Source: a phage
Reading direction: 5' to 3' (one strand)
DNA: 64,000 bases
Sequence record: PQ478073.1
Under the pieces are notes generated by a model that did no database searches, had not been told where the DNA came from, and saw only the letters and a program-made list of their open reading frames with translations. Numbering within the stretch: position 1 is the first letter of the stretch; every line of letters starts with the position of its first letter. A program made the translations under genes and the position numbers. Shown here in pieces: positions 132 to 30,270 of the stretch.

Positions 132-160
132 TGGGACATTATATGTTCCAATGATATAAT
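132..160 (+). promoter_or_regulatory. promoter-like site, class A (TGGGACA-N-TGaTATAAT)
   Basis: TGGGAC at 132-137, 17-nt spacer, TG-extended TATAAT at 155-160; same architecture recurs at 11231 and 30242. Confidence 0.55.
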
Positions 161-656
161 GTATATAGAAAATGACAACGGACATTGAAAAATGGACACT
201 GAGAACCTACTTCTCTTGAAAATGTAAAGGATAGATGAGCTTTACCGTTGTAGCGAACAGCAGAAGAAACCTGTTAGAGTACTGGCATTCAAACAAACAC
301 GATGTAAGACCACGAATCACGGCGACACGGCTGTATAAAGAACTCCGATAAGCATACAGAGAGTTCCTAGATAGATGTATAAGGTTCGCACCTTACCAGA
401 TTTGCTAAGGGAGTTCAAGGATAGCGGACGCAATTTTTACAAGAAAGTTGCGTCCAAAATTTGAGAACAAGTACTACTTTGATCGAATAGAGTTAGTACT
501 GAGTGCTGTTGATGAAAAGACCAGCGACCGTTGCATATGACTGCGATAGAGAGAAACCGAGCAACCCGCTTTCGCTCTCTAAATTTTGGTACAAGAAAGA
601 TCCGTCCAAAATTTGAGAAATTCGCAATTCGATAATATCCGATGCCATCATCGTCA

Positions 657-685
657 AGAGAGACTTAATTGTCTCTTTTTTATTA
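657..685 (+). terminator. rho-independent terminator
   Basis: agagagac / ttaatt / gtctct hairpin followed by ttttttatt. Confidence 0.6.
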
Positions 686-821
686 CCTTCATTCCCCTGC
701 GGGGGGATGTAATAGTCCTCAACAAATCCCGTCAAGTTTTTAAAGTACATTATCATTTTCAGAAGGAACTAGTTTACGAAGTAAACGCAGTGACTTCTTG
801 AGTTACGAGAGAACGAAGTGA

Positions 822-1250
822 ATGAGTAACACAACGAAAATATCCGATAAATCCGAATTAACACAAATGTTATTCAAAGAATATTTTGAGTTTCAGATAA
901 AAGACGAACATCAATTACCACAGCAATATTTGAAAAGAATTAAAGATCCGTCAGTAATTACTAAAGAAACTAATTTTTATAATAGTATTTTGGATTTCGT
1001 TAAATCAGTTCATACAACAAGACCTATTGTAGTTTTGTTTTTTGATAAATCTATTCCTTTAGTAGTTCCTGAAAATGTATTTTTTATTTCAGAAACTGAT
1101 TTAAATAATCAAAGTACTGTAAGTAGATTAAGAAATTGCTTACTTGTAGTATGTGATTCTTCTTTGTATAATAACAGAATACTATGGGATAGAAGTAAAC
1201 GCAATGCAGTTTCTGAAATGAATCCTGAAATTACCTTTATTATTAACTAA
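822..1250 (+). CDS. hypothetical protein (142 aa)
   Basis: ORF track; ATG start; first long ORF after terminator 657-685; no recognisable motif. Confidence 0.5.
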   Translation: MSNTTKISDKSELTQMLFKEYFEFQIKDEHQLPQQYLKRIKDPSVITKETNFYNSILDFVKSVHTTRPIVVLFFDKSIPLVVPENVFFISETDLNNQSTVSRLRNCLLVVCDSSLYNNRILWDRSKRNAVSEMNPEITFIIN

Positions 1251-1282
1251 ATAATAAGAGAATAACTCTAAGGAGAGATATT

Positions 1283-1723
1283 ATGGAAGATATTAATGAT
1301 TTACGACACGTAATGGACTTTATCGGTAGTACTGAAGAAGATAATTCGTATGATGAAGTACTATTAACTTTTATTGAAAATAGTTTGTTTTTAAGTTCTG
1401 CTGCACATAACTGGCACTTACAATGTCATTTTTATACAAAGCATTTACAATTAGATGAACTATATAAAGAATTACCAGAATATGTAGACGCATTTGTTGA
1501 AGGTATCATGAATAATCGTGGTGCTTTACAAGTTGGAACTGGTAATAGTTATCGTTTTACACCAATTGAAGATTGTGTACCAATTCTTGAAGAATATGTT
1601 GAGCAATGTAGAGCAATTCATGATATGCTTGAAGAATCAGGTGATTACGGCAGTGTAAACACATTAGAAGATATTATGAGTTTTGTTGAAGGAACACTTT
1701 ACAAACTTAAAGTTTTACAATAA
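1283..1723 (+). CDS. Dps-like ferritin-fold protein (146 aa)
   Basis: SD aaggagag upstream of ATG; segment AAHNWHLQCHFYTKHLQLDELYKELPEYVDAFVEG reproduces the Dps ferroxidase-site spacing H-x11-H-x14-D-x3-E. Confidence 0.6.
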   Translation: MEDINDLRHVMDFIGSTEEDNSYDEVLLTFIENSLFLSSAAHNWHLQCHFYTKHLQLDELYKELPEYVDAFVEGIMNNRGALQVGTGNSYRFTPIEDCVPILEEYVEQCRAIHDMLEESGDYGSVNTLEDIMSFVEGTLYKLKVLQ

Positions 1724-1730
1724 AATATAT

Positions 1731-1760
1731 GGAGAGTCATTGTGACTCTCCTTTTCTTTT
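1731..1760 (+). terminator. rho-independent terminator
   Basis: ggagagtca / ttg / tgactctcc hairpin followed by ttttctttt. Confidence 0.7.
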
Positions 1761-1771
1761 GGAGAAATAAA

Positions 1772-2389
1772 ATGAAATCTCATGATTTAGCAAAATTACT
1801 ACTATCTCAACCAAATCTAGAAATTTATCATTATGATGCAGAGAGTGACTTGCATTATCAGAATTTTGATAATAAATTAATGGTCACCCCATCTGGCATT
1901 TTCACAACGGTAAAACCCACATCAGTTTCTGAAAATGTACTTACACCATACGAAACCCCGCTCTTGGGTCATGTACAAATTTTCTTTAAGGATGGTACTA
2001 TTACTCCAAAATTGGAGGGTTCATCTATTCAAACTGTTCTTAACTTAGAATCTGGGTTGATATTTAACATTCCTTATGAAAAGCCAATTGTTTTATTAGG
2101 TAAAAATCAATCAGCACCATCAGGGAATCAAAATGCTGTTTGGTATACACCCGATGATATTGATTTCATTTCAGTACTGACAGAATATGATCCTAATACT
2201 TGGCATGAAACATGGGAAAATATGTCATATGATGAAGCAATTGAATGTGGTAAAAATTTAGCCAAAATGTTATTTCCACCAAAAAAAGAACTTTCACAAG
2301 AACAAAATGAATCATTTTCTAAAGATTTTCCTGATTCTGAATTCAATGTAAAAGTATCACCTTCTATGATTGATAAAATTGAAAAATAA
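1772..2389 (+). CDS. hypothetical protein (205 aa), paralogue of 3125..3709
   Basis: ORF track frame; start moved to ATG 1772 (SD ggagaa, downstream of terminator); N-terminus MKSHDLAKLLLSQPNLEIYHY matches MKAKDLAALLLQNPEMEVYHEH of 3125..3709. Confidence 0.6.
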   Translation: MKSHDLAKLLLSQPNLEIYHYDAESDLHYQNFDNKLMVTPSGIFTTVKPTSVSENVLTPYETPLLGHVQIFFKDGTITPKLEGSSIQTVLNLESGLIFNIPYEKPIVLLGKNQSAPSGNQNAVWYTPDDIDFISVLTEYDPNTWHETWENMSYDEAIECGKNLAKMLFPPKKELSQEQNESFSKDFPDSEFNVKVSPSMIDKIEK

Positions 2390-2401
2390 AAGAGGTTGAA
2401 C

Positions 2402-2755
2402 ATGAGTGATTACCGCGTAACATCTGGACTAATGGCACGTCTTATTGAAGCAGTTCCTGAAGATGATTATGAAGCTATTTCAGATCGTCTTTTTGACGCA
2501 GATTCTAAACTCCATATTACATATGATGGTGCATTGATTTACAGTACTGATATTGATATGTCTAGTTATGAATTTGAGATTTCTTTTGGTAACAAACTAA
2601 CTACTGAAGAATTCGCTCGAAAATGTGAGCGTGAAGGATTCTGTATTGATATTAGTTCAGTTCAGCCATATACATCACTGTGGTATGATGGTGCTGATAG
2701 TCCAATGTCTACTACATCTTTACAGGATTTTCTAAATGCAAATCAAAAAGATTAA
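2402..2755 (+). CDS. hypothetical protein (117 aa)
   Basis: ORF track frame; ATG 2402 preceded by agagg SD. Confidence 0.5.
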   Translation: MSDYRVTSGLMARLIEAVPEDDYEAISDRLFDADSKLHITYDGALIYSTDIDMSSYEFEISFGNKLTTEEFARKCEREGFCIDISSVQPYTSLWYDGADSPMSTTSLQDFLNANQKD

Positions 2756-3128
2756 ATTCCACCAGCATTGTTCTATACATGAATGTGATGATTGTGGTAT
2801 ACAAATGAGTGACATTTATACAGTTTCCTGTAAAGGTTTCAAATTCACTCACGGTGAACCTGCTTATTGTTATGGTACAGAAGAAGGTGATATCGAAGTA
2901 GTACTGAAAGAATTGTTCCAGTACTTGCAAAGTGTAGGTCATGATGTTACAATACCCACATATTATGAAGATGATTATGATGCACATGTAGAAGAAAATA
3001 CATATTATAATCAATTCGTTTATGGTAATGGTTTTATCACATATCTACATGAGAATGGTATTGAGGTAAAAACTAAGTACACCAGTGATGATTATGATGA
3101 TGATAATTCTATGGAGATTGAAGATTGA
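2736..3128 (+). CDS. hypothetical protein (130 aa), acidic, Cys-containing N-terminus
   Basis: ORF track; 20-nt overlap with upstream gene; start uncertain (alternative ATG 2805). Confidence 0.45.
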   Translation: MQIKKIKFHQHCSIHECDDCGIQMSDIYTVSCKGFKFTHGEPAYCYGTEEGDIEVVLKELFQYLQSVGHDVTIPTYYEDDYDAHVEENTYYNQFVYGNGFITYLHENGIEVKTKYTSDDYDDDNSMEIED

Positions 3129-3709
3129 AAGCAAAAGACTTAGCAGCACTGTTGTTGCAGAATCCTGAAATGGAAGTGTATCATGAGCACATGCACATTG
3201 ATGACATGTGTGACGCTTACTATTCACCAGAAAATGTGTCTGGTATTGAAATTACCCCTAGTGGCGTATTCATCAGTACTGAACGTATTGATTATAATTC
3301 CCAGCAAGAAATCAAAACTCCACATAATAAACCTCGCATTGGTGCTATTGACCTAGTATTTCATCAGGACCGTTTGGTAGAATATGATGAAGAAGATGGT
3401 ACTACCCGAACTGATGTTGAGAATGTAGTTTTTCGTTTTTATAATGCATACGAAGACCCAACTACTGGAGAAGATTTCTTCCGTGAGCTATTAGAGGATG
3501 GAGAAGTTTATGGTCAGGATGGTACGGTTTTTGTACTGGACCCTAACTATGAGCCAGATCACAATACATGGCAATTCTATACACCAGAAGATGTAATGGA
3601 AGTTAAAGTACTTACTGATCTTGACGATAAATGGAATCCTATGTATACTTCAATGACATATGAAGAAGCCAAAGAATACTTCGTTTCTAAACTAAACATT
3701 ACAAAATAA
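3125..3709 (+). CDS. hypothetical protein (194 aa), paralogue of 1772..2389
   Basis: TTG start overlapping upstream stop, GGAG SD 7 nt upstream; shares N-terminal motif and TPSG[IV]F / NTW motifs with 1772..2389. Confidence 0.55.
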   Translation: MKAKDLAALLLQNPEMEVYHEHMHIDDMCDAYYSPENVSGIEITPSGVFISTERIDYNSQQEIKTPHNKPRIGAIDLVFHQDRLVEYDEEDGTTRTDVENVVFRFYNAYEDPTTGEDFFRELLEDGEVYGQDGTVFVLDPNYEPDHNTWQFYTPEDVMEVKVLTDLDDKWNPMYTSMTYEEAKEYFVSKLNITK

Positions 3710-3726
3710 TAAGGATTCACAAATTT

Positions 3727-4008
3727 ATGAAAATTGTTGCAAGTGCATGGATGAAACTACCAGATGGTACAACTGCTTTTGAAGAATATGGCTTTGTTGA
3801 AAGTGTCGATGAATTAAAGCGTTTCAAGAGTGAAAATGATGATGATGTTTTTGATATTGTATTTGTATATCATCATATTCCTAATGATACTGATTATGAA
3901 CATTATTATTATCATCCTGATTTGTTGGAAACACTTGTATGCGACAACTATCATGAAATTGATGAAAATACAGCTTTACTAATGTTGAGTACCGTATCTC
4001 CGGTATAA
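3727..4008 (+). CDS. hypothetical protein (93 aa)
   Basis: ORF track; SD-like aaggattc upstream. Confidence 0.5.
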   Translation: MKIVASAWMKLPDGTTAFEEYGFVESVDELKRFKSENDDDVFDIVFVYHHIPNDTDYEHYYYHPDLLETLVCDNYHEIDENTALLMLSTVSPV

Positions 4009-4016
4009 GGAGTAAT

Positions 4017-4496
4017 ATGTATAATCTTATAATTATCCGCGAACCATATGAATCTGACAACAGTTCAACTGATGGTGAGGTTTTAGTATATCAAAGTTAT
4101 GAACAAAGTGGCATTGAACATGAATTAAAAGATTATTTACGTCAACATATATATCTATATCGTACCGAACCACGTGAACAGTATGGAGATATAATGTTTA
4201 TCGTAACTCATAATGGTGCAGTAATTGAACATGTAAATATGACAAATAACATGTATTTTCATAATTACACTGACACGTCTAAAGAATTAGGAAACGATTT
4301 CAAGTCTGTTTTCGATGCATTGCGTATCAATTTTTTTAAAAATGACAAATTCTGTACTGATATTAGATTAGAAGAAGCAAATACAAAAAAGAAACTTTCT
4401 CGAAAATACGAGAGTGATAGAAAAAAAGAACAAGAGATTCAGCGTTTACATGAATTGATGAAAAAATACCCTAATGAGGTACAACATGGCTCTTAG
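4017..4496 (+). CDS. hypothetical protein (159 aa)
   Basis: ORF track; aaggag SD upstream. Confidence 0.5.
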   Translation: MYNLIIIREPYESDNSSTDGEVLVYQSYEQSGIEHELKDYLRQHIYLYRTEPREQYGDIMFIVTHNGAVIEHVNMTNNMYFHNYTDTSKELGNDFKSVFDALRINFFKNDKFCTDIRLEEANTKKKLSRKYESDRKKEQEIQRLHELMKKYPNEVQHGS

Positions 4497-4824
4497 AGGT
4501 TCAAATCAATATAAATGTATTGCAGAGATCAGGAAGAAAGATGGAACACTTGTAGACCGAGCATTGAAGCAAGAATATAAAGAATTACGTGATGTGGTAC
4601 ATAATGATAGTTATGGTGGGATGCGTCGTCAAAAAATTTATGAATATCTAAAGAAAGGTTTAGAAATTCAGGTTAATGGTCTTCATTGCATTCAAACAAA
4701 AAACGATCCTGATATTCTACGTTTGTTGAAAGAAGATAAGATTGAAATGTTTAATGTTCCTATTTCATTCTATGGTAATAAACTAAAATGTAAGCATACT
4801 TTCTTGAGGATTAAAAATGGTTGA
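4474..4824 (+). CDS. hypothetical protein (116 aa), basic
   Basis: ORF track; overlaps upstream gene end. Confidence 0.45.
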   Translation: MRYNMALRGSNQYKCIAEIRKKDGTLVDRALKQEYKELRDVVHNDSYGGMRRQKIYEYLKKGLEIQVNGLHCIQTKNDPDILRLLKEDKIEMFNVPISFYGNKLKCKHTFLRIKNG

Positions 4825-5041
4825 TTCATTTATGAAAAAAATCTTTAAAAAATTACTATCTGGATTTGAAAAAGCAGTAAGTCTTATTTTCAGTTCAGTT
4901 GTAATGGTTATTACAGTACTGGTGTTTTCTCTAGTACTGCATTTTGTACCATTCTGGTTAATCTTTATTGTACTTATTGCTCTGCTAGGTGCACATGTTT
5001 ATTATGTTTACCGTGACGCATTGGATGATGATAACGATTAA
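4817..5041 (+). CDS. small membrane protein, holin-like topology (74 aa)
   Basis: GAGGA SD 6 nt before ATG; two predicted hydrophobic helices (VSLIFSSVVMVITVLVFSLVL, FWLIFIVLIALLGAHVYYVY) and acidic C-terminus DALDDDND. Confidence 0.45.
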   Translation: MVDSFMKKIFKKLLSGFEKAVSLIFSSVVMVITVLVFSLVLHFVPFWLIFIVLIALLGAHVYYVYRDALDDDND

Positions 5042-5049
5042 ATGTATTT

Positions 5050-5074
5050 GACCTCACTATGTGGGGTCTTTTTT
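5050..5074 (+). terminator. rho-independent terminator
   Basis: gacctcac / tat / gtggggtc hairpin (one mismatch) followed by tttttt. Confidence 0.5.
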
Positions 5075-5086
5075 AAGGAAAATTAT

Positions 5087-5539
5087 ATGCTTATAGAAAC
5101 AGAAACATTTAAGCGTTTTATTGACGTATGTCGTGATACGTGTTTTTGTTATCTTTCATCACAAGAACAGTTCGATGCAATGAGTGATGTGTTAGGTTAT
5201 CGCCGTTCGGTATTGATGTATTTTGATGGTCCTTTGATTGAAGTTCATGATGATGTGTATTCCCTACAATATGTATCAATTAACAATGCGTTCATTTTTA
5301 TTGCTGACTCGTACTCAATTGTAGTTGAGGAACGTGGTAAAGGTATACCAACAACACACTATATTGATTGTCAAAGAACTGATTGTGTTTATAGTTCTGG
5401 ACTAATACAAACACCAATTCCATATCCTAGCATTTATATAAACACACTCCATCAAGAAATTATTGAGTACTGTAATAGTATTTCTGATACAGATACACAG
5501 TATTTTCCTATTGTATTATTGAAAGGAGTTAGAACATGA
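5087..5539 (+). CDS. hypothetical protein (150 aa)
   Basis: ORF track frame; start placed at ATG 5087 downstream of terminator with aagga SD. Confidence 0.5.
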   Translation: MLIETETFKRFIDVCRDTCFCYLSSQEQFDAMSDVLGYRRSVLMYFDGPLIEVHDDVYSLQYVSINNAFIFIADSYSIVVEERGKGIPTTHYIDCQRTDCVYSSGLIQTPIPYPSIYINTLHQEIIEYCNSISDTDTQYFPIVLLKGVRT

Positions 5540-5925
5540 GATGGCGTAAACGACACGTAAAAAGATTTGATAAAATAATCAAAAAATATTACTCACATAA
5601 GTTAGATCCAATCATACTTCAACTAAGAAGTAGTATGTTTGATAGACGTTTTCCACAGTGTTTAGAATCGTACAGTCGTAAACGTTACAAGAATGAATAC
5701 CTGGTATATCGTTATGATTTATCAGAATTCTTTTTGAATACTCGTGTATCTGTACCCATCAGACTGTACTCAAGGGTAAAACGAAGTAGGGTTCAAGATA
5801 TTACATATGGATATCTTATGATTGAAATCGACGACCTGAATGAAAAAACTGGCAGAAATTACAGTACTTTATGTCTGGAAAACCATGATTCAATAAAAAG
5901 AATCATAGAAGAGTTGGGAAAGTGA
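5536..5925 (+). CDS. hypothetical protein (129 aa), basic
   Basis: ORF track; start overlaps upstream stop (ATGA). Confidence 0.5.
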   Translation: MRWRKRHVKRFDKIIKKYYSHKLDPIILQLRSSMFDRRFPQCLESYSRKRYKNEYLVYRYDLSEFFLNTRVSVPIRLYSRVKRSRVQDITYGYLMIEIDDLNEKTGRNYSTLCLENHDSIKRIIEELGK

Positions 5926-5954
5926 GATTTTTAGTGCTATAATTGGAGATGAGT

Positions 5955-6299
5955 ATGAAATACATCGATAAAGGTACAGTGGAGACACAGTACTGGAATA
6001 TCCATATTGCTGGTGATATTCAAACAGCAAGAGAATACACAAGAAAATTTGCGTTTAAGCATGGCTTTTGTGTACAATTAATTCCCTGTGAATATATCTA
6101 CACTGGTGGTCTTGAAAGTGGGATGTGTGCTCGTATTATTCAGTACCCACGCTTTCCAAAAGAAGAAGTATATCTCAACCGAGATGTATTAAACTATGCA
6201 AAGGGTTTAGCTGAAGAGTTGTGTCAAAAGAGCTTTACTATAGAGCGAAATAATGATACAATTTATTATGAAAGTGATGAACCTTTACACAAGAAATAA
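5955..6299 (+). CDS. hypothetical protein (114 aa)
   Basis: ORF track frame; ATG 5955 six nt after GGAG. Confidence 0.5.
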   Translation: MKYIDKGTVETQYWNIHIAGDIQTAREYTRKFAFKHGFCVQLIPCEYIYTGGLESGMCARIIQYPRFPKEEVYLNRDVLNYAKGLAEELCQKSFTIERNNDTIYYESDEPLHKK

Positions 6300-6310
6300 A
6301 AGGAAAATAT

Positions 6311-6442
6311 ATGAATGGACTAAAGAAATTTGGTAAAGATTTTCTAAAATGCATACGCTACACATATGATGCAAATCCAGAAATGACTGCCATTGTGGGT
6401 GTGTTTATTACACTCGTTGTATTAAGCTTTATTGTGGTGTAA
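6311..6442 (+). CDS. small hydrophobic protein (43 aa)
   Basis: Below ORF-track cutoff; aaggaaa SD, ATG, C-terminal hydrophobic stretch AIVGVFITLVVLSFIVV; fills gap between neighbours. Confidence 0.35.
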   Translation: MNGLKKFGKDFLKCIRYTYDANPEMTAIVGVFITLVVLSFIVV

Positions 6443-6445
6443 AAT

Positions 6446-6649
6446 ATGATTGAAATTAATGCTGATATATATTGTAGTGCATCACCCAATTACTTCATTT
6501 ATGCACTAAGTACATTTGGTGAAACTGAAGGTGAAACTTTTGTTTTAGTAGAGAATACTACATGGTTCAAAACAAGTAATAAAATTCCGAAAGATGTTTT
6601 GGAAACATATGTTCGTATTGAAAATAAAAACATATATGTAATTTTATAG
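6446..6649 (+). CDS. hypothetical protein (67 aa)
   Basis: ORF track. Confidence 0.4.
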   Translation: MIEINADIYCSASPNYFIYALSTFGETEGETFVLVENTTWFKTSNKIPKDVLETYVRIENKNIYVIL

Positions 6650-6656
6650 GTAACAT

Positions 6657-7067
6657 ATGATTGAAATGGAAGGAACTCTGGTGTATGATCCAGATCGTGG
6701 CACTATGAAAAAGAAGAAGGACTTCTGGTTAGTACTACAACTTCCATTACAGTTGGTTCGATACTACCAGTACTTCATCAGAACTGACTTACATATTGAT
6801 ATTAAAGACCCACAATGGGGAGCACATGTCAGTATCGTTCGTGGTGAAGTGCCACCAAATCCAGAGTACTGGAAAAAGTACGATGGAATGAAAGTAAAGA
6901 TAAAGTTCAATCCTTGTATTGAGATAGTAAAAGATAAAAAGAATCCAGGTTCATTCTTTATCATTGAATTTGAAGATGATTTCATCACACATATTAGAAA
7001 TGAACTAGGACTACCAACCAAGTACTTTAAATATCACATCACTGTAGGTAGAACTTACTACGATTAA
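6657..7067 (+). CDS. 2H phosphoesterase superfamily protein (136 aa)
   Basis: Two H-x-[TS]-x motifs with hydrophobic fourth residue (AHVSIV and YHITVG) about 70 residues apart, the hallmark of the LigT/2H fold. Confidence 0.55.
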   Translation: MIEMEGTLVYDPDRGTMKKKKDFWLVLQLPLQLVRYYQYFIRTDLHIDIKDPQWGAHVSIVRGEVPPNPEYWKKYDGMKVKIKFNPCIEIVKDKKNPGSFFIIEFEDDFITHIRNELGLPTKYFKYHITVGRTYYD

Positions 7068-7235
7068 TGTGGTTTTTACAGTAAATATGTCTTGTAATAA
7101 AATAAAAATATGCTATACTACTTAAACATTTGAAAAGAACGTTTTTGTACTGTAGAAAGTCCGATGAGGCTTTTGCAAATGGCCTCTTTGCCATCTTTGT
7201 GATTGCCCATCTTAACAATCAACAAAGGAGGCGTT

Positions 7236-8162
7236 TTGAAACAAGCGAAAAAAGCACTGAAAACTAAGACTACTTATGGTGTTCTAGTTTGCACAGTACT
7301 TGTCGCTGCGATTGGATTTTATGGTTTTTCTCAAAATGATCGTGTATCATCATCGGACGAAAGTCAGGTACACAATTTAAAACCACAAGTTACGCAAATT
7401 CAAAAGCAGGAATTACCAAAGGTAGAAATATCAAAGGATGTTCCACGCGGCGAGAAGCATTATACGGTTCAACCTGGTGATAGTTATTATTCTATTGCTA
7501 AAAAGTTTAAACCTAAAAATGTACAACTTGAAGAGTATGTTATTTTGTTGAAAAATATCAATTTAAATGCTACTCTTCATACTTCTCAGGGTATCTTTAT
7601 CCCAACAAAAGAGGATTTGAAGAACGTATTGTTACCAGATGTGACTGTACTGTTTGATTATAATGATCCAGAAATTGTCAATCACATCAAAGAAGCTGAA
7701 GGTTCAATTGAATTTCAGTCCAAGAACAAACGCCGTTTACTTGGTGGGAAAGTCGGAGTTCCTTTCCACAATTCTAAATTTCATCCCTACAAGGACATGA
7801 AAGGTAATTATACAATAGGTTATGGGCATTATTTGGGTAGAAAAGAATCTGATGCGATTAAGTACAGAAACGGTATTACCAAAGCTCAAGCCAATAAACT
7901 TTTAATGCAAGATATGAAAAGAACATATAATGACTTTTTATTATTGATGCAGAAAAAAGAAGCAGTAAATCTGACCAAAGAACAACAACGTATTCTTTAT
8001 GAAATGTCCTATACAATGGGTGTTGATAAATTAGCAACGTTTAATAAACTTTGGAAAAGTGTGAAAAATGATAACCCTAAGAAATTTAAAAAAGAAATTA
8101 TGAATTCCTTATGGTATCGTCAAGTTACAAACCGAGCAGATTTGTTGTTAAGTTCACTCTAA
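7236..8162 (+). CDS. membrane-anchored LysM + T4-lysozyme-family (GH24-like) protein
   Basis: Perfect SD aaaggagg then TTG 7236 (ORF track starts 7203); N-terminal hydrophobic helix VLVCTVLVAAIGFYGF; LysM-like YTVQPGDSYYSIAKKF; lysozyme motifs YKDMKGNYTIGYGH, GITKAQANKLLMQDM, SLWYRQVTNRADLL parallel T4 lysozyme. Confidence 0.7.
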   Translation: MKQAKKALKTKTTYGVLVCTVLVAAIGFYGFSQNDRVSSSDESQVHNLKPQVTQIQKQELPKVEISKDVPRGEKHYTVQPGDSYYSIAKKFKPKNVQLEEYVILLKNINLNATLHTSQGIFIPTKEDLKNVLLPDVTVLFDYNDPEIVNHIKEAEGSIEFQSKNKRRLLGGKVGVPFHNSKFHPYKDMKGNYTIGYGHYLGRKESDAIKYRNGITKAQANKLLMQDMKRTYNDFLLLMQKKEAVNLTKEQQRILYEMSYTMGVDKLATFNKLWKSVKNDNPKKFKKEIMNSLWYRQVTNRADLLLSSL

Positions 8163-8178
8163 AAAAGGAAGGTGAAGT

Positions 8179-8511
8179 ATGCTAAATCTAAATATTCAAG
8201 GCAACGTTGATATCACTCCAGCAATCCAAGATGCTATTTACAATGAAGCAAAAAGTCTGGATAAGTACCGTACTTCTTCAGTACTAGACATTGGTGTTCA
8301 TGTTAAGAAAGAGCATAAAACTCAATATGCTGTAACTTTAACTGCTGGTAGTAAATCAGTAACTGCTGATGATGCTGATTTGTATAAAGCAATTGTTGAA
8401 TCTTTTGATAAGATGGAAACTGTATTCAGTAAAGACAAAAGCATTAAATTACACCGCAGAAACCATCCAGAACACCCAGTTCTTGATGATTTGACAGAAA
8501 ACGAAGAGTAA
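8179..8511 (+). CDS. hypothetical protein (110 aa)
   Basis: ORF track; aaggaaggtg SD. Confidence 0.5.
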   Translation: MLNLNIQGNVDITPAIQDAIYNEAKSLDKYRTSSVLDIGVHVKKEHKTQYAVTLTAGSKSVTADDADLYKAIVESFDKMETVFSKDKSIKLHRRNHPEHPVLDDLTENEE

Positions 8512-8521
8512 TATATACTAA

Positions 8522-8550
8522 AGGGACAGATTAATTCTGTCCCTTTTCTT
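8522..8550 (+). terminator. rho-independent terminator
   Basis: agggacaga / ttaat / tctgtccct hairpin followed by tttctt. Confidence 0.7.
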
Positions 8551-8564
8551 ATGGAGTTTTAATT

Positions 8565-15896: not shown

Positions 15897-18560
15897 ATGG
15901 CAGGAGATCTACTCTCACCTGGCGTTTCCATTTCAGTAACTGATGAAAGTATGAGTACCGCTGCTGCTCCTGGCACTGTACCACTATTTGTAATCGCTAC
16001 TGCTGAAGACAAACTTGTCCCAGGAAGCAGTGCAATAGCTGCGGGAACTACTAAAGCAAACGCTGGAAAACTACAGCTTCTAACATCACAAAAAAGCTCA
16101 CTTGATACCTATGGTACACCAATTTTTCAAATGAATAACGGTTCTGTTGTTCAAGGTGATGAACTAAACGAATATGGCCTACATGCAGTATATTCTTATC
16201 TAGGCATTACTAACCGTGCATATGTAATTCGTGCTGATATCGATCTAGCACAACTAGCACCAAGTGCTGAAGCACCAACTGGCCCAGTATCCAATGGTAC
16301 TTTGTGGTTTGATACCGCACAATCACAAGTAGAAGCGTATGTAGCGAAGAAAGATAGTCCAAGCAGTTTTTATGATTGGCAACTTAAGCCAGTAACTATT
16401 GTAAGTGCTGAAGAAGTTGAAGATGTAAGTCTAGTAGGTTTAAATGTTGATGATTTAGTTCTACGTTACAAACCAAGCAATGGTCAGATGCTAATGTATA
16501 AACGTTCTGCTTCTGGGCTAGTGCAAATGGAAACTTATCTATCACCAATTAACAAAGTTCCAGTTGGCTCAACTGTAGAAAAAGGTAACATTTGGATTCG
16601 TGATGGTTACACCCAAAATGGTTCAAACTATTTTGGTACTCGTTTTGTTATTAAACGTTATGCATCCCTAACTCAAGTTTGGAATATTGTACCAGCATAT
16701 ACTGGTAATTCATTCCAAGAAATTGAAGCGAAAAGTGGTGTACTAAACAATAGTTATATCGCATCTCGTTTTGATGAAGATAGTAAGAGTTTCTCTTTCT
16801 ATATTCAAAGTGCAAAACTAACAACAATTAGTGCTCCTGCTTTGCCACTTGGTGAAACTATTATTGAACAAGCAGGTGCTGATAGTTATATGACTTTTGT
16901 TTATTTGAATAAATCAGTTAAAGTACTAGCAGTTCCACAAGGCGGTGTTATTAATACCCAAACTATCATCAATAATCTAAATGCAAATGCTGAAATTATT
17001 AACGATGGTTTTAAATTTAAACGTGAAACTAATGGTGGTTTAGTTGTTTCCAATACAAAAGGTTACAGTTTCAAAATCACACAAAGTGGTGATGATATTT
17101 TTGCTGAATCTGAACTACAAAAACTAACTGTAGATAGTAACAACTACTCTCTAATTAACGTTAATAACTTCCGTGTTAGTTATTCAGTACCACGTAGTGT
17201 AGCAAAAGAAGGAACTCTCTGGTATGATTTCGGGAACTCCGATAATCTAACTGTAACTATGTATGTTGCTGATGTTGCTAATGATGAATGGGATCTAGTA
17301 CAAGAAGAAAACAAATATGTACAAGTTGATGAACCAGCGGCTGACCGTTTAATTTGGGTTTGTCCTTTGTCTCAAGGCATTGATGGTTATGATTTCTATC
17401 GTAACGTTGATGGTGAATGGGTTAAACTTGACAGTACTGATCAAAGTACACTAAATGGTATGATTTTCCAAGACTTTAATTTCCCAAGCCAAGTTCCTGC
17501 TGCGGCATTGTATCAAAATGGTATGCTTGCAGTTGACCTAGGTAACACTGAAGGTGTTGTTAAGAAAATGGTTAATGGTCAATGGGAAGTTGTTAGTGGT
17601 GTAAGTCTTGATGGTGCTGGCCTATTTGGTCGTGCTGCACAACGTCAACTAGTAGTTGAAGCACTAGCTGCTGTTATTATTGGTAATGATGACATTCGTT
17701 CTGAATTTATTGATTTTAACCTAATTTGTGTACCTGGTTACGTTGAAACACTTGATGAATGTGTAACTTTAAACACTGATCGTAAAGAAACTGCATTTAT
17801 TGTTACTGACGTTCCAGCACGTTTGAATCCAACTGGAAACGGTAGTGCTGTACAACAATGGGCTACTAATGCTAACAATGCACCAAGCAACGGTTCAGTT
17901 GGTCGTACAACTGCTTATGATTATGCTGCTCAGTATATGGGTTGGTGTCTAAGTACTAACGTTGATGGTGAAGAAGTTGCAGTTCCTGGTAGTACTATTG
18001 CAATGCGTACATATGCATACAGTGATAGTGTTAGTTATGTATGGTATCCACCTGCTGGTACAACTCGTGGTGTTGTAACAAACGCTGCAAGTACTGGTTT
18101 TATCAACAGCGAAGGTGAATATCAACCAGTAGTATATAACCAAGGTCAACGTGACGTTATGTATACTAACAACATTAACCCAATTGCAATGCGTCCTAAC
18201 CGTGGTTTGCTTGTTTATGGAGATAAAACTCTATCTGCTAATCAAACTTCTGCACTAAGTCGTGTTAACGTTGCTCGTTTAGTTGTTTATATTCGTCGTC
18301 AACTAGAAATTATTTCCGAACCATTCCTATTCCGTTTGAATACTCCAAGTACTCGTCAGGAATTTAGTGGTGTAGTTAATAGTTTCTTGGCTGAAATTGT
18401 TCAACAACAGGGTCTTTATAACTTCGCAGTAGTTTGTGATGAAAGTAACAATACCGCAGAGCGTATTGACCGTAATGAACTTTGGATGGATATTGCAATC
18501 CAACCAACTAAGAGTATTAACTTCATTTACGTACCAATCCGTATCGAAAAAACTCAATAA
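15897..18560 (+). CDS. tail sheath protein (887 aa)
   Basis: GGAGGA SD; N-terminus LLSPGVSISVTDES and C-terminal block VNVARLVVYIRRQ...FAVVCDESNNTAERIDRNELWMDIAIQPTKSINFIYVPIRI parallel T4 gp18; codon usage less AT-rich than neighbours. Confidence 0.85.
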   Translation: MAGDLLSPGVSISVTDESMSTAAAPGTVPLFVIATAEDKLVPGSSAIAAGTTKANAGKLQLLTSQKSSLDTYGTPIFQMNNGSVVQGDELNEYGLHAVYSYLGITNRAYVIRADIDLAQLAPSAEAPTGPVSNGTLWFDTAQSQVEAYVAKKDSPSSFYDWQLKPVTIVSAEEVEDVSLVGLNVDDLVLRYKPSNGQMLMYKRSASGLVQMETYLSPINKVPVGSTVEKGNIWIRDGYTQNGSNYFGTRFVIKRYASLTQVWNIVPAYTGNSFQEIEAKSGVLNNSYIASRFDEDSKSFSFYIQSAKLTTISAPALPLGETIIEQAGADSYMTFVYLNKSVKVLAVPQGGVINTQTIINNLNANAEIINDGFKFKRETNGGLVVSNTKGYSFKITQSGDDIFAESELQKLTVDSNNYSLINVNNFRVSYSVPRSVAKEGTLWYDFGNSDNLTVTMYVADVANDEWDLVQEENKYVQVDEPAADRLIWVCPLSQGIDGYDFYRNVDGEWVKLDSTDQSTLNGMIFQDFNFPSQVPAAALYQNGMLAVDLGNTEGVVKKMVNGQWEVVSGVSLDGAGLFGRAAQRQLVVEALAAVIIGNDDIRSEFIDFNLICVPGYVETLDECVTLNTDRKETAFIVTDVPARLNPTGNGSAVQQWATNANNAPSNGSVGRTTAYDYAAQYMGWCLSTNVDGEEVAVPGSTIAMRTYAYSDSVSYVWYPPAGTTRGVVTNAASTGFINSEGEYQPVVYNQGQRDVMYTNNINPIAMRPNRGLLVYGDKTLSANQTSALSRVNVARLVVYIRRQLEIISEPFLFRLNTPSTRQEFSGVVNSFLAEIVQQQGLYNFAVVCDESNNTAERIDRNELWMDIAIQPTKSINFIYVPIRIEKTQ

Positions 18561-18567
18561 AATACTA

Positions 18568-18592
18568 AGGGAACCTTTTGGTTCCCTTTTTT
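18568..18592 (+). terminator. rho-independent terminator
   Basis: agggaacc / tttt / ggttccct hairpin followed by ttttttatt. Confidence 0.75.
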
Positions 18593-18955
18593 ATTGTTTA
18601 AAATTAAATACCTTTATATTGATGTTATAAAGGGACATTATGGATATGGAAGAAATACTAAAAAGAACAATACAAGATGTCAGTAAAATAGTTTTAACTC
18701 AGTTAGAATCAATACACATACTAAATATATTTTTAAAAAATTTAGAAGATTGTCGGTATAATTGAAAAATACGAAGTATACACAAATGGAAAATGGTCTA
18801 TATCAGTAAACTATATTGACCACACTAAACGAAAAAGATACTTATATTGTGTTAATATTAATTGGTTCCCTGTTGATGACACTTTAGTTAATTAAAAATA
18901 TACTTCCAGATAGATAAATAATATAAAGATGTCATTCCATAATAGGAGAATATAA

Positions 18956-19642
18956 ATGGCTACAATGCTTGATCGATATGGCGTACCGCTCGCTGGCGGT
19001 GGTCGTATCTCTATGAAACAACCAAAAGCAAAATACAAATTTCGTGTTATTTTCTTTGGTTTTGGTACTAATGATGATGGTAATATGATTACACTAGACA
19101 CCAATACCGTTGGGGCAGTATCTGTATCACATGAAAACGTCACTGTTCATAGTTACAACAGTTCTGCACACTACAAAGGGAAATACACTTGGGATACAAT
19201 TGATGTTGCTTTCCGTGACTCTGTAGGTAATGCTTCTGCTAAAGCACTATACAACCAAATGCGTAAAGAATTTAACTACTACAGTCAAGAATCTCGCATG
19301 ACAGATTCACAATTTAAATTTGAAATGTGGATTCAAGAGCTTGATGGTTCTAATAGTGAAAATACAACAAACTTGTTTGAAGGAACATTGAGTACTTGGG
19401 TATGTCAAGGTTGCTTTATTGAATCCAGCAACTTTGGTGATTGGGATTATTCCTCAAGTGAAGCACAAGTTATTTCAATGACTGTTCAACCAGATGGTTG
19501 TGCTAAATTGGGTCCAAATGGCGAAGCGTTCGGTGATGAAGTTAGTGGCTTCGGTAATCCATCAACTGCTACCTCTATTTCTGGTGCACAAACTAATATT
19601 AGTAGTACTACTCTACCAGATAGTAACTTCTACGAAAATTAA
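18956..19642 (+). CDS. putative tail tube protein, paralogue 1 (228 aa)
   Basis: Immediately downstream of sheath; N-terminus YGVPLAGGGRISMKQPKAKYKFRVIFFGFG shared with next gene. Confidence 0.5.
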   Translation: MATMLDRYGVPLAGGGRISMKQPKAKYKFRVIFFGFGTNDDGNMITLDTNTVGAVSVSHENVTVHSYNSSAHYKGKYTWDTIDVAFRDSVGNASAKALYNQMRKEFNYYSQESRMTDSQFKFEMWIQELDGSNSENTTNLFEGTLSTWVCQGCFIESSNFGDWDYSSSEAQVISMTVQPDGCAKLGPNGEAFGDEVSGFGNPSTATSISGAQTNISSTTLPDSNFYEN

Positions 19643-19662
19643 TTTTATTTAAACTTAATATA

Positions 19663-19691
19663 TAGCCTCGAATCTATTCGGGGCTTTTTTT
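19663..19691 (+). terminator. rho-independent terminator
   Basis: agcctcgaa / tcta / ttcggggct hairpin (one mismatch) followed by ttttttt. Confidence 0.6.
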
Positions 19692-19736
19692 ATGCTAAAT
19701 AAAGTATAATGCCTTATAAAATAAAAAGAGGTTGCT

Positions 19737-20513
19737 ATGGCAAATAACATGATTAATAAATATGGCGTTCCTTTACCATCGGGGCGTAATCGTTCAATGC
19801 TACAACCGAAAGCAAAATACAAGTTTCGTGTTATTGTGTATAATTTCGGTACTGATATAGATGAACGTGATCACATCGCATTAGATGTTGATAAAATTGA
19901 TAGACCTACTGTAACATTTAGTACTCATAAACTATATCAATTTACTACTAATACTTCCTATATAGGTAGTCATGATTGGGAACCAATTACTATATCTATA
20001 CGTGATTCAGTTGGAAATGCATCAGCAAAAGCATTATCACGCCAACTACAAAAACAACTTGACTTTCAACGCAGAATAACTTCAAGAAATGACCAAGATT
20101 ATGGTTCTTATAAATTTGGTTTAGTTATACAGATGTTGAGTGGTCGTAACTCAGATGATACACTAGAAAATCTAGGAAGAGATACACTAGTAGATGCTGC
20201 AACTGCTGCAACAAATAATGCTGGCTTAGTAAATGCAGTAGATCAATTTATTGGTGGTTCTTCTTATAACAGTGCTGGTGTTATGGAATACTTTGTTTTA
20301 ACCGGATGTGTTATTCAAAACATATCATACGATTCATTAGACTATAGTTCAAGTTCTCCAGTTGAAATGGTAGTGACTATCAAACCAGATAATTGTATAC
20401 AATTTGATAACATTGAAGAAATGTATAGTACCAGAATTAATTCACTTTTACCTGAAAATGTCAATCAAGGTTTAGATATCATTGATCGTGTTTTTGGTAG
20501 TGTAGGATTTTAA
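19737..20513 (+). CDS. putative tail tube protein, paralogue 2 (258 aa)
   Basis: N-terminus YGVPLPSGRNRSMLQPKAKYKFRVIVYNFG; C-terminal motif VEMVVTIKPDNC similar to paralogue 1 ISMTVQPDGC. Confidence 0.5.
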   Translation: MANNMINKYGVPLPSGRNRSMLQPKAKYKFRVIVYNFGTDIDERDHIALDVDKIDRPTVTFSTHKLYQFTTNTSYIGSHDWEPITISIRDSVGNASAKALSRQLQKQLDFQRRITSRNDQDYGSYKFGLVIQMLSGRNSDDTLENLGRDTLVDAATAATNNAGLVNAVDQFIGGSSYNSAGVMEYFVLTGCVIQNISYDSLDYSSSSPVEMVVTIKPDNCIQFDNIEEMYSTRINSLLPENVNQGLDIIDRVFGSVGF

Positions 20514-23196: not shown

Positions 23197-23199
23197 CAC

Positions 23200-23742: not shown

Positions 23743-23755
23743 GGAGAATCAACAC

Positions 23756-25273: not shown

Positions 25274-25295
25274 TAACTAAAAGGATTTATTTAAA

Positions 25296-26276: not shown

Positions 26277-26277
26277 T

Positions 26278-26673: not shown

Positions 26674-26676
26674 TAT

Positions 26677-27057
26677 ATGTTTCCAGAACCATCACATAAC
26701 AGTACTGAATATCAAAATAATGTACTTTCCAAAGTTAGGGAAGTACATGAATCAGATTCAGAAATAACAGACCGTATGCTTCTGATGTCAATTTTTGAAA
26801 ATTTCAGAACTGGCGGTGGTTTACGTCTTAGTAAGTTTGGATATGGAATTTGTAAAGAAAATAATCTTTATGAATTTACAAAAATCCCCTTGCAAAGAGA
26901 ATTTAAAAGTTCTATAATGTTTACATCACTTGACAGAATATGTACTTCACCTTACTATGTTGAAGGTCAGTACATATATCTGACAGATGCAATGATAATA
27001 ACTGAATTAACATTGTGTTGTGATGATTTTAAACAGTTATTTTCTATTCATATGTAA
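26677..27057 (+). CDS. hypothetical protein (126 aa)
   Basis: ORF track. Confidence 0.5.
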   Translation: MFPEPSHNSTEYQNNVLSKVREVHESDSEITDRMLLMSIFENFRTGGGLRLSKFGYGICKENNLYEFTKIPLQREFKSSIMFTSLDRICTSPYYVEGQYIYLTDAMIITELTLCCDDFKQLFSIHM

Positions 27058-27080
27058 GAAAAATGAGTTAAAAATAAATG

Positions 27081-27108
27081 TTGACAAGATAGAATGATGT
27101 GATATAAT
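27081..27108 (+). promoter_or_regulatory. sigma70-like consensus promoter (class B), upstream copy
   Basis: TTGACA 27081-27086, 16-nt spacer, TG-extended TATAAT 27103-27108. Confidence 0.65.
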
Positions 27109-27173
27109 AAGCATCAGACATAAAGTTTTCAAGCGTCACAAGATGTGAGTTTGAAAAAAAGAAAAAAAAGTGA

Positions 27174-27201
27174 TTGACAAGTTGAAACGATGTGATATAA
27201 T
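27174..27201 (+). promoter_or_regulatory. sigma70-like consensus promoter (class B), downstream copy
   Basis: TTGACA 27174-27179, 16-nt spacer, TG-extended TATAAT 27196-27201; core TTGACAAG...GATGTGATATAATG nearly identical to upstream copy. Confidence 0.65.
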
Positions 27202-27262
27202 GTTCACATCAAGACAGCAAAGAGATTTACCTTTTAAACACACGGATGATTCATGAAGTAAC

Positions 27263-27303
27263 AAAGGAACTGATAAGTTAAATTATTTTAACACAGTTCC
27301 TTT
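27263..27303 (+). promoter_or_regulatory. 5'-leader hairpin upstream of MoxR-like gene
   Basis: 10-bp perfect inverted repeat aaaggaactg ... cagttccttt with 21-nt loop. Confidence 0.45.
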
Positions 27304-27370
27304 ACTTTTGCCCACGGATTGGCTATAATAGAAACTTAAACGATTTTATCCAACAAAAGGAAATATATAC

Positions 27371-28696: not shown

Positions 28697-28717
28697 TTAA
28701 CAAAGAGTTGTTGACAA

Positions 28718-28750
28718 GAAGGATGCCTAATGGTATCCTTCTTTTATCTT
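28718..28750 (+). terminator. terminator-like hairpin overlapping a TTGACA -35-like hexamer
   Basis: gaaggat / 10-nt loop / atccttc followed by ttttatctt; TTGACA at 28711-28716. Confidence 0.5.
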
Positions 28751-28770
28751 AACTAAACGAGGAAATATAC

Positions 28771-30195
28771 ATGTCAGATAACAAATCTACTTCCAGATTT
28801 AATGAAGTATCTCCGGCACTCCAGAAAGAATGTCAAGAACGTCTGGTTCTGGCTCGTACATCTTTGATGTTAACTGCACCATTCTTTGGTGTACTCGCTT
28901 CACGTTTACGTCCAGTTCCTAATAATACATGGTGTCGTACTCTAGCAGTGGATGGTAAACATCTATTCTACAACGTAGAATTTGTAATGGGTATTCAAGA
29001 CCCATCTAAAAAGAAAGAATATGAAGAAGCTATTCGTGAAAAGCACCCTGAAGTTACAGACGAACAATTAAAAGAAATGACTGAAGGTTTGACTGATGAA
29101 AACCTTGTTGCAGTAATTTGTCATGAAATCCTACACTGTGCTTACGATCACTTCCTTCGTCGTGGTATGCGTGATCCACAACGTTATAACCGTGCAGCGG
29201 ATTATGCCATTAACCAAATCATCGTTCGTGAGAAAATTGGAAAAATCCAAAGTTCATGGTTGTATGATAAAAAATATGAAGGTATGACCGCAGAAGAGAT
29301 TTACATTCTTCTTGAAGAAGAAGAAGAAAAGCAAGATGGTGAAGGACAAGGACAACCACAAAGCGGTGGTGGTGAAGGTGAAGGTAAAAATCGTGGAACT
29401 TTTGGTGATATTAAAGATGGTAAGGGTAAACCAAAAGGTACTACAATTGACCAACATGACGTTCCACAAGAAGGTCAAGAAGGTGGTTCTAGTGAACAAC
29501 AAAAACGCGATTATATGGATGATTTCAAAACAGCAATGATGAATGCTGCACGTGCAGGTGGTACACCAGCAGAAATCGCTCGTATGATTAACAACTTCAA
29601 AGAACCAAAGATTGACTGGCGTTCAAAACTTCAACGTACTCTTCGTAGTTGGTTGAAGTCTGATGCAACTTATCAAAATCCAAATCGCCGTTCATGGGGT
29701 GCTGGTTTTGGTTCTAATGGTTCATTCTATGGTAATCCAATTTACCCAGGGATGAAACCAGATGATGATATTGATATTGCGATTGCACTAGATGCTTCTG
29801 GGTCTATTTCTGAAGATATGCTTCGTGATTTCATTAGTGAAGTTCTTGGCATCACTAAACAATTCAAACAGTTTAAGATTCGTATCATGACTTTTGATAC
29901 TGAAGTTTATACTGTAAAGGATTACAAAACTGGCGAAGAACGTAAGATTCTGGAATATCCAGTAAAAGGTGGTGGTGGTACTGACTTTGAAGCAGTATGG
30001 GTTCATATGAAGAACGACAACTACAAGCCTAAACAGCTTGTAATGTTTACTGATGGTGAACCGTGGCAGTCATGGGGTGATCCAAACTACTGTAAAACAC
30101 TGTTCGTGATTCACAGTAACCCAAATAAAGTTGCACCATTTGGTGAGACTGTACACTACGAATATGAAGCTGATAAAAAGCGTCAACGTAGTTAA
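28771..30195 (+). CDS. HExxH putative metallopeptidase domain + von Willebrand factor A (VWA) domain protein
   Basis: VAVICHEILHCAYDH (HExxH); Gly-rich linker; MIDAS-like DIAIALDASGSIS and downstream FTDGEP. Confidence 0.7.
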   Translation: MSDNKSTSRFNEVSPALQKECQERLVLARTSLMLTAPFFGVLASRLRPVPNNTWCRTLAVDGKHLFYNVEFVMGIQDPSKKKEYEEAIREKHPEVTDEQLKEMTEGLTDENLVAVICHEILHCAYDHFLRRGMRDPQRYNRAADYAINQIIVREKIGKIQSSWLYDKKYEGMTAEEIYILLEEEEEKQDGEGQGQPQSGGGEGEGKNRGTFGDIKDGKGKPKGTTIDQHDVPQEGQEGGSSEQQKRDYMDDFKTAMMNAARAGGTPAEIARMINNFKEPKIDWRSKLQRTLRSWLKSDATYQNPNRRSWGAGFGSNGSFYGNPIYPGMKPDDDIDIAIALDASGSISEDMLRDFISEVLGITKQFKQFKIRIMTFDTEVYTVKDYKTGEERKILEYPVKGGGGTDFEAVWVHMKNDNYKPKQLVMFTDGEPWQSWGDPNYCKTLFVIHSNPNKVAPFGETVHYEYEADKKRQRS

Positions 30196-30206
30196 GTACT
30201 AAATAA

Positions 30207-30237
30207 TGAGAACGGAATTTTCCGTTCTCTTCTTTTA
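30207..30237 (+). terminator. rho-independent terminator
   Basis: gagaacgg / aatt / ccgttctc hairpin followed by ttcttttat. Confidence 0.7.
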
Positions 30238-30241
30238 TAAG

Positions 30242-30270
30242 TGGGACAACTTATAAAAATATGATATAAT
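30242..30270 (+). promoter_or_regulatory. promoter-like site, class A
   Basis: TGGGAC 30242-30247, 17-nt spacer, TG-extended TATAAT 30265-30270. Confidence 0.55.

Follow-up and report, generated by a model that had tools for sequence, protein, structure and literature searches.

Middle promoters of phage T4 combine a MotA box with a sigma-70 -10 element and are used through sigma appropriation by MotA and AsiA, and the phage sigma factors gp28 of Bacillus phage SPO1 and gp36 of phiEco32 redirect the host core polymerase. Closer to the sites considered here are the three promoter classes predicted with MEME for the jumbo phage CBB and noted likewise in GAP32 (PMC5259590; the GAP32 promoters are those of Abbasifar et al. 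2014, as cited there). In CBB, RpoD-like promoters with an UP-like element are concentrated among small early genes, in a region where the gene of an RpoD-like sigma factor is found as well; a 'divergent' class (Promoter 1) has a normal -10 element with TGAAACG replacing the -35 element, and stands mostly 5' of DNA-synthesis genes and of the gene for a gp55-like protein; and a third class carries ATAAATA 5' of structural genes (PMC5259590). Table S6 of the same paper gives 29-nt CBB sites of the form TGAAACG-N13-TGnTATAAT, including one before the gp55-like gene. PMC8948821 also deals with phage-encoded sigma factors that redirect the host core polymerase. The published work on CBB and GAP32 consists of MEME prediction, names no reader of the box and has Asteriusvirus outside its coverage. 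Here, we analyse a stretch of phage DNA of 64,000 nucleotides (PQ478073.1; the whole stretch is called the window below), in which a box, TGGGACA, recurs at a fixed distance before an extended -10 element, TGATATAAT, and argue that such sites are probably middle promoters of Asteriusvirus (box T-G-(G/A)-G-A-C-A, 13-nt spacer, TGnTATAAT) read by a sigma factor of the phage itself.

Judged by similarity, the window comes from a PBECO4/121Q-like Asteriusvirus, a ~350-kb E. coli jumbo phage: in megablast, positions 1–20000 matched the Asteriusvirus E. coli jumbo phages SP27, phAPEC6, PBECO4, 121Q and G17 at full length with 97–99% identity, with more distant RaK2-like phages, which infect Salmonella, Klebsiella, Cronobacter, Erwinia, Yersinia, Serratia and Pectobacterium, matching this segment at 60–80%. 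The complete but unannotated genome of phage EC22.5-2 (EC22; 351,992 bp), 99% identical to the window, served as the whole-genome reference, with the counterpart of the window at about 143,191–207,200 and rough gene calls (538 in total, 484 on the + strand). The unannotated record of TH47, whose nucleotide identity to EC22 near promoter sites is 76–92%, represented a second Asteriusvirus lineage. The G+C content is 34.8% in the window and 34% in the genome.

Of the 95 TGnTATAAT sites in EC22, 11 have the box [TC]G[GA]GACA at exactly -20 from the TG and two have it at -21; every other offset in the range scanned (-60 to -6) is empty, with 0.009 occurrences expected per register. Scored with a weight matrix built on the 11 sites in exact register, 32 EC22 sites scored 14 bits or more, without exception on the + strand; they are spread over 86–343 kb, and 23 are intergenic by the rough gene calls, most standing 10–90 nt 5' of a gene. 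Outside the box and the -10 element, the EC22 sites have no common sequence. We put the predicted class at about 26–30 promoters per genome, so that the matrix search extends well past the few sites of the original prediction, which held neither a class on this scale nor the counterpart class already predicted in CBB and GAP32 (PMC5259590). Within the window, TGGGACA by itself is not enriched (6 found against 7.1 expected) and TGATATAAT is over-represented (10 against 2.1), and the signal therefore lies in their fixed combination: the 29-nt pattern has four window matches with up to two mismatches, a number reached in none of 100 shuffles (mean 0.32). A generic sigma-70 scan gives the TGGGACA sites 10/12 with TGn, but its count in this A+T-rich window is at chance level (67 found, 65 expected), so the scan alone cannot validate sites. 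In IMG/VR, the exact 29-nt pattern occurs in 43 stretches, more than once only in RaK2-like jumbo contigs, and the remaining matches look like chance singletons.

Conservation between the two lineages follows the same architecture. When 26 orthologous site pairs of EC22 and TH47 were compared gap-free and anchored on the -10 element, the box was 0.88 identical, the spacer 0.63 and the upstream flank 0.67; TGnTATAAT, present in every one of the 26 TH47 orthologues, gave 1.00, a value that holds partly by construction as the TH47 -10 elements were found by pattern search. The pooled box composition (n = 52) is T37, G42, G32 or A17, G48, A51, C45 and A49, with G strongly favoured at positions 2–4 despite the A+T-rich genome. 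The original prediction had taken TGGGACA with its extended -10 element as a dedicated class, and geometry, conservation and genome-wide distribution together bear this out against chance. It had also divided the window sites into two architectures, 'Class A' (TGGGACA-N13-TGATATAAT at 132, 11231 and 30242, with 16 nt to TATAAT) and 'Class B' (a tandem pair, TTGACAAG...GATGTGATATAAT, at 27081–27108 and 27174–27201). Both sets of sites are there as described, the identical spacing of the first set is exact and the pair of the second set scores 12/12 for the sigma-70 consensus with a 16-nt spacer and TGn, but the division between them falls away. 'Class B' agrees with 'Class A' in register and in TGATATAAT; TH47 orthologues swap box kinds (TGGGACA with CGGGACA or TGGAACA, TTGGACA with TGGGACA, and GTAGACA with GTTGACA); and the supposed partial 'Class B' copy at 51252, a real site with its -10 element at 51255–51263, turns out to be a full member with a box of its own, GTAGACA at 51235–51241, in the 'Class A' register. 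For these reasons we treat the sites as one family in which the first box positions are variable.

The genes behind these promoters were identified by Pfam and PHROG scans of the first gene after each site. A gp32-like single-stranded DNA-binding protein gene sits behind a tandem pair of TGGGACA-class promoters, and other first genes encode a GyrB-like topoisomerase subunit, a 5'-3' exonuclease, a PD-(D/E)XK nuclease, ClpP, a ClpA/B-like ATPase, a MoxR-like ATPase, a small regulator-like protein (phrog_639) and, behind a promoter of its own, the gp55-like late sigma factor (phrog_12791, E = 2.7e-154). Further targets are the Nudix gene, the thymidylate synthase operon and a tRNA gene or cluster, and in EC22 four structured non-coding RNA units each lie directly behind a class promoter. 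A separate early-type class consists of about 30 near-identical promoters clustered at 30–50 kb of EC22 (L002), in which an A-tract is combined with GTACTTGCA or TTGACA, with a GTATAAT that lacks TGn and with a conserved hairpin; it surfaced through intergenic k-mer enrichment, itself dominated by terminators and by this promoter array. ATAAATA-like motifs, matching the late-promoter motif predicted for CBB and GAP32, lie 5' of structural genes in the window (tail sheath and neighbours; 15840–15896, 18900–18955 and 19700–19736), where exact TATAAATA does not occur. From the gene set, the separate early array and the ATAAATA motifs at structural genes, we infer that the TGGGACA class is middle-type (delayed-early), between an early and a late class.

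Members of the early array take the form aaaaaGTACTTGCA...GcGTATAAT or TATTGACA...agtaCTGTATAAT, followed by gttTACATC and a G/C-rich hairpin. Repeated fusions of terminator and promoter, aaaGGTTGACTTCGGTCAGCCctttttTG(C/T)TATAAT with the -35 hexamer inside the hairpin, occur in EC22 at 340705 and 1951 (L008, L002) and in TH47 at 213999–229590.

Outside the window, EC22 encodes a sigma-70-family protein of 321 amino acids (332205–333170; L008:32205–33170) with regions 2, 3 and 4, which matches RpoD_Cterm (1.9e-19), Sigma70_r3 and Sigma70_r4 as well as solved RpoD/SigA chains (down to 7e-17). Canonical TTGACA-N17-TATAAT sites lie 1.2–3 kb upstream of its gene, and early expression of the phage sigma is plausible. 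The RpoD-like sigma evolves fast: EC22 and TH47-type phages share 59% of its amino acid sequence, and 95% of that of the gp55-like protein. The recognition helix of region 4.2 is nevertheless kept. All RaK2-like sigmas have an insertion of 8–10 residues in the turn of the region 4.2 helix-turn-helix, after which the region aligns without gaps, and E. coli numbering is used below. A search of IMG/VR with the sigma protein returned 121Q as the sole match.

Residues at the -35-contact positions of this sigma change in the same pattern as the box. At positions 584, 585, 588 and 589, the four Asteriusvirus variants (EC22, TH47, A4 and UE-S1) share R, S, H and R at only 59–85% overall identity, with the box TGGGACA (checked in EC22 and TH47); Salmonella phage 7t3, 37% identical overall, has R, T, H and R, also with TGGGACA. 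CBB, GAP32 and pEa_SNUABM_47 have K, A, S and R with TG(A/G)AACG, a RaK2-like Klebsiella phage has R, G, H and Y with TGAAC(A/G), and E. coli sigma-70 itself has R, E, R and Q for TTGACA. The box 5' of the gp55-like gene is likewise TGGGACA in EC22, TH47 and the 7t3-like SE_PL, TGGAACG in pEa_SNUABM_47 and CBB, and TTGAATA in RaK2. The shift is also seen at the 21-kb gp32 locus, taken from 31 IMG/VR relatives (13 loci tabulated), which holds six syntenic TGnTATAAT promoters per genome. Here, the Asterius-type box was found at four of five sites in 121Q and 17 of 18 in 7t3-like contigs, with neither TG[AG]AA[CT]N nor TGAA[CT][AG] at any of them; Mimas/Eneladus-like contigs had TG[AG]AA[CT]N at 49 of 53 sites and neither of the other two boxes, and all three RaK2 sites had TGAA[CT][AG] and no other. 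As the n of TGn, 38 of the 49 Mimas/Eneladus-like sites have G, and the other lineages have A or C. At the position of the window promoter at 11231, downstream of the gene for the CCA-adding enzyme, a synteny check revealed no promoter in RaK2, which makes this locus uninformative.

In the 7t3/SE_PL-like contigs (L078, L080 and L081), the TGGGAC box mostly stands 14 nt, not 13, before TG. The sigma of these phages has two extra residues in the region 4.2 insertion.

All hosts of the compared phage lineages are Enterobacterales, across which region 4.2 of sigma-70, the part that reads the -35 element, hardly varies. That the box changes in concert over whole lineages therefore points to a reader encoded by the phage. 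The RpoD-like sigma is the only phage protein with a domain for reading the -35 element whose contact residues change in the same pattern, and is the probable reader. The original prediction had offered a modified host polymerase or a phage factor, and of these the phage factor is now the better supported. Motif, distribution, conservation, downstream genes, concerted box change and the match to sigma residues were all computed directly; the covariation of box and sigma residues is correlative and extends over three or four lineage groups.

On this evidence, we propose a cascade in which host RNA polymerase with sigma-70 would transcribe the early class (A-tract, TTGACA/CTTGCA, GTATAAT), some of whose promoters lie upstream of the RpoD-like sigma gene. 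The phage sigma would then displace sigma-70 on the host core, and its altered region 4.2 (R, S, H, R in place of R584, E585, R588 and Q589) would read TGGGACA at the -35 position. Genes for replication and nucleotide metabolism, tRNAs, Clp proteins, the four structured RNAs and the gp55-like late sigma would thereby be switched on, and the late sigma would in turn drive ATAAATA-type late promoters. Initiation at these sites, its timing and the identity of the reader are in this scheme deduced from sequence.

Several points weigh against the phage sigma as the reader. The -10 part of the sites is a perfect sigma-70 extended -10 element, and host holoenzyme is expected to use extended -10 sites without a -35 element. 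In sigma-70, H455 and E458 are the residues that read TG; all the phage sigmas have V at E458 and Y or H at H455, and TG is the best-conserved part of the motif. The correspondence of residues and boxes, drawn from so few lineage groups, follows no clean one-residue-one-base code, the E. coli sequence used for the region 4.2 numbering was entered by hand, and HMMER alignments to solved E. coli RpoD end at the insertion, just ahead of the recognition helix. Another phage DNA-binding protein could covary with the box in the same way. A literature search found no start-site, timing, promoter or transcriptome study for Asteriusvirus, function being read from sequence here, and promoter analysis is likewise absent from the papers on phAPEC6, Sharanji, fEgEco12, EJP2 and RaK2. 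Because of the host-type -10 element, the V at E458, the few lineage groups and the weakness of the search for MotA and AsiA described below, we leave some probability to a host-only or a T4-like mechanism.

That the sites are plain host sigma-70 extended -10 promoters, the box being a sub-optimal, partial -35 element that tunes strength or escape with no need for a phage factor, seems to us unlikely, although GGGACA matches TTGACA at four of six positions at 16 nt (10/12 with TGn for the whole site), the 3' half of the box, GACA, agrees with the sigma-70 -35 element, orthologues drift to full TTGACA, and the phage sigmas lack an equivalent of E458. Host extended -10 promoters are expected to have a dispensable and unconserved -35 element, an expectation at odds with a box that is better kept than its spacer and strongly biased to G; a weak or dispensable -35 element would not hold G at positions 2–4 in a genome of 34% G+C. 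Nor would such an element shift in concert over six syntenic promoters (Asterius-type box at 0/53 sites in one group and 17/18 in another) among phages whose hosts all belong to one order. The n of TGn is lineage-specific, a position to which sigma-70 is indifferent, and the genome also contains a distinct early class whose -35 elements are canonical.

Sigma appropriation as in T4, with sigma-70 reading the -10 element, a phage activator (with or without an anti-sigma factor remodelling region 4) binding the box and the RpoD-like sigma serving other promoters, would account for a perfect sigma-70-type -10 element with TG next to a lineage-specific box, the established logic of T4 middle promoters. 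AsiA-like proteins are present in some group 2 jumbo phages (Iyer et al.), and a small regulator-like gene (phrog_639) lies behind one class promoter. We nevertheless regard this mechanism as distinctly improbable. No relative of AsiA or MotA was found with phmmer among all open reading frames (ORFs) of at least 40 amino acids (best E 0.96 and 0.42), a weak test with single hand-entered query sequences, which would miss remote homologues; the box stands where a -35 hexamer would, ending 16 nt before TATAAT, whereas a MotA box has its centre at about -30; and no other promoter class was found for the RpoD-like sigma, whose region 4.2 residues partition exactly as the boxes do. We give almost no credence to the 29-nt pattern as a mere trace of a duplicated or mobile cassette without selected function, which would fit the ~94-bp tandem duplication of the 'Class B' unit with its variable copy number and the paralogy of the four RNA units and their promoters, but not sites that share no sequence beyond box and -10 element, keep both between lineages while spacers diverge, and stand at unit boundaries before unrelated genes.

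Features of the window (PQ478073.1); members of the promoter family begin at 132, 5915, 11231, 27080, 27173, 30242 and 51235
Feature	Position	Strand	Elements	Matrix score	Context
P1	132..160	+	box TGGGACA 132–138; 13-nt spacer; TGATATAAT 152–160	25.5	intergenic
Non-coding unit	160..790	+			behind P1; one of four EC22 paralogues
Variant promoter	5915..5943	+	TGGGAAA-N13-TGCTATAAT	22.2	
P2	11231..11259	+	TGGGACA 11231–11237; N13; TGATATAAT 11251–11259	29.7	intergenic
'Class B' copy 1	27080..27108	+	gTTGACA-N13-TGATATAAT; 12/12 sigma-70 consensus; TGn		
'Class B' copy 2	27173..27201	+	A-tract; aTTGACA-N13-TGATATAAT; 12/12 sigma-70 consensus; TGn		
Intrinsic terminator hairpin	30208..30229	+	9-bp stem, 5 G-C pairs, then T-rich tail		
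P3	30242..30270	+	TGGGACA 30242–30248; N13; TGATATAAT 30262–30270	31.1	intergenic
Family member, ClpA/B-like	51235..51263	+	GTAGACA 51235–51241; N13; TGATATAAT 51255–51263	28.2	

Transcription from P1 is predicted to start near 167 and would drive the non-coding unit; its TH47 orthologue is CGGGACA-N13-TGATATAAT with a diverged spacer. The variant promoter overlaps the 3' end of the ORF at 5536–5925, with the next gene at 5943/5955, and corresponds to TGGGCAA...TGCTATAAT in TH47. P2 stands 3' of the CCA-adding enzyme gene and 5' of the Nudix gene, whose ATG is at 11301, and TH47 keeps both its TGGGACA and its TGATATAAT, with 9 of the 13 spacer bases changed. The two 'Class B' copies belong to a ~94-bp tandem repeat (27040–27260), each unit consisting of an A-tract, TTGACA, TGATATAAT and a ~45-nt leader, with two copies in the window, EC22 and TH47 and three in SP27 (L001:42041–42351); the -10 element of copy 1 is TACAAT in EC22 and SP27, and the MoxR-like ATPase gene (27371; phrog_1297) begins ~170 nt after copy 2. 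Directly 5' of P3, the terminator closes the upstream unit, and downstream of P3 lie a small gene (30290/30305) and the thymidylate synthase operon (SP27 annotation); the TH47 box is CGGGACA. The gene after the 51235 site encodes a ClpA/B-like ATPase (AAA_2, ClpB_D2-small), and the TH47 orthologue of this site has GTTGACA.

The unit behind P1 belongs to what we predict to be a conserved, promoter-driven family of structured RNAs new to Rfam. The + strand of 160–790 holds no ORF longer than 38 amino acids apart from one candidate of 71 amino acids with a TTG start (586–801). By BLAST, the EC22 paralogues start at 89937, 143351, 223155 and 333234, each directly behind a class promoter (three of the spans being L003:39937–40556, L006:23155–23774 and L008:33234–33853), and the units measure ~450–600 nt. 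Eight sequences, four paralogues from each of two lineages, align with 66% mean column identity and long invariant blocks. RNAalifold placed 81 pairs on this alignment, with 96.8% of cells paired and compensatory changes in 27 pairs, a count made on the same alignment from which the structure was derived; shuffles gave 11.8 ± 2.2 such pairs, with 0/500 reaching 27, and slid partners gave 1–4. Against Rfam, the unit had no match at gathering thresholds, only chance-level snoRNA matches up to E = 5, and Rfam and ARAGORN together found no known RNA and no tRNA in the window. BLAST located the unit in 72 RaK2-like phage records, usually in 4–5 copies each, unannotated or labelled as small hypothetical proteins, and Asteriusvirus and RaK2 both have a copy immediately after the sigma gene. 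The RNAs ncRNA002 and ncRNA004 of PA5oct, found by RNA-seq, had no similarity to the unit detectable with nhmmer, and their expression evidence is therefore not transferable to it.

The Nudix gene after P2 (11301–11400) is split, as first noticed in the original prediction, by a one-base frameshift (GHTT | GQNHWDLPKGK). Since the identical shift occurs in the window, EC22, 121Q, SP27 and the 13%-diverged TH47, and the few TH47 changes are synonymous in the frame that applies on either side of it, the sequences suggest a maintained, possibly programmed, frameshift and not a sequencing error.

Taken more broadly, we see about even chances that the RaK2-like jumbo phages have diversified into mutually distinct sigma/promoter pairs, in which a fast-evolving RpoD-like sigma would combine host-like reading of the -10 element with a re-coded region 4.2, the ~25–30 middle-promoter boxes of each genome would have changed in concert (TGGGACA, TGAAACG, TGAACA), and four promoters per genome would drive a clade-wide family of ~450–600-nt structured RNAs absent from Rfam, one copy directly after the sigma gene. 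Asteriusvirus, whose PBECO4/121Q-type members are considered for therapy, gains a three-tier transcription map with about 26–30 predicted middle promoters. The concerted change of box and sigma residues is a natural experiment on the evolution of sigma/promoter specificity and could yield sigma/promoter pairs that are orthogonal and function with the core polymerase of E. coli, and seemingly 'empty' intergenic stretches in >70 phage genomes would turn out to be a conserved structured RNA family.

Among known systems, E. coli extended -10 promoters are matched perfectly by TGnTATAAT, but they neither need nor conserve a -35 element, whereas Asteriusvirus conserves a lineage-specific, non-consensus box. 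Like the middle promoters of T4, the Asteriusvirus sites join a sigma-70-type -10 element, often with TGn, to a non-canonical upstream element at a fixed distance, and serve replication genes, tRNAs and gene 55, in a tier that follows an early sigma-70 class and precedes a late TATAAATA-type class; unlike them, they carry TG(G/A)GACA at the -35 position in place of the MotA box (a/t)(a/t)(a/t)TGCTTtA near -30, in a phage with a full RpoD-like sigma, which T4 lacks. With SPO1 gp28 and phiEco32 gp36, they share the proposed replacement of sigma and phage-specific elements for the next temporal class, yet the phage promoters of those systems are unlike the host's, whereas in Asteriusvirus the -10 element is the host consensus and only the -35 box would be reprogrammed. 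The closest likeness is to CBB and GAP32, in which the layout is the same (7-nt box, 13 (±1)-nt spacer, TGnTATAAT), the same gene sets are served (DNA synthesis and the gp55-like late sigma), an RpoD-like sigma is again encoded, and promoters stand at orthologous positions (six around gp32, and the gp55-like promoter in five lineages). The box is TG(A/G)AA(C/T)G there and TG(G/A)GACA in Asteriusvirus, with T1, G2, A5 and C6 shared, and TGn is mostly TGG there and TGA or TGC here. With the Mimas-type box at 0/5 sites of 121Q and 0/18 sites of 7t3-like contigs, the Asteriusvirus sites are not members of the class by TGAAACG itself, and we take their box to mark a lineage-specific variant of that CBB/GAP32 class. 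What is new is thus a predicted Asteriusvirus member of a middle-type promoter class known so far from predictions in related jumbo phages.

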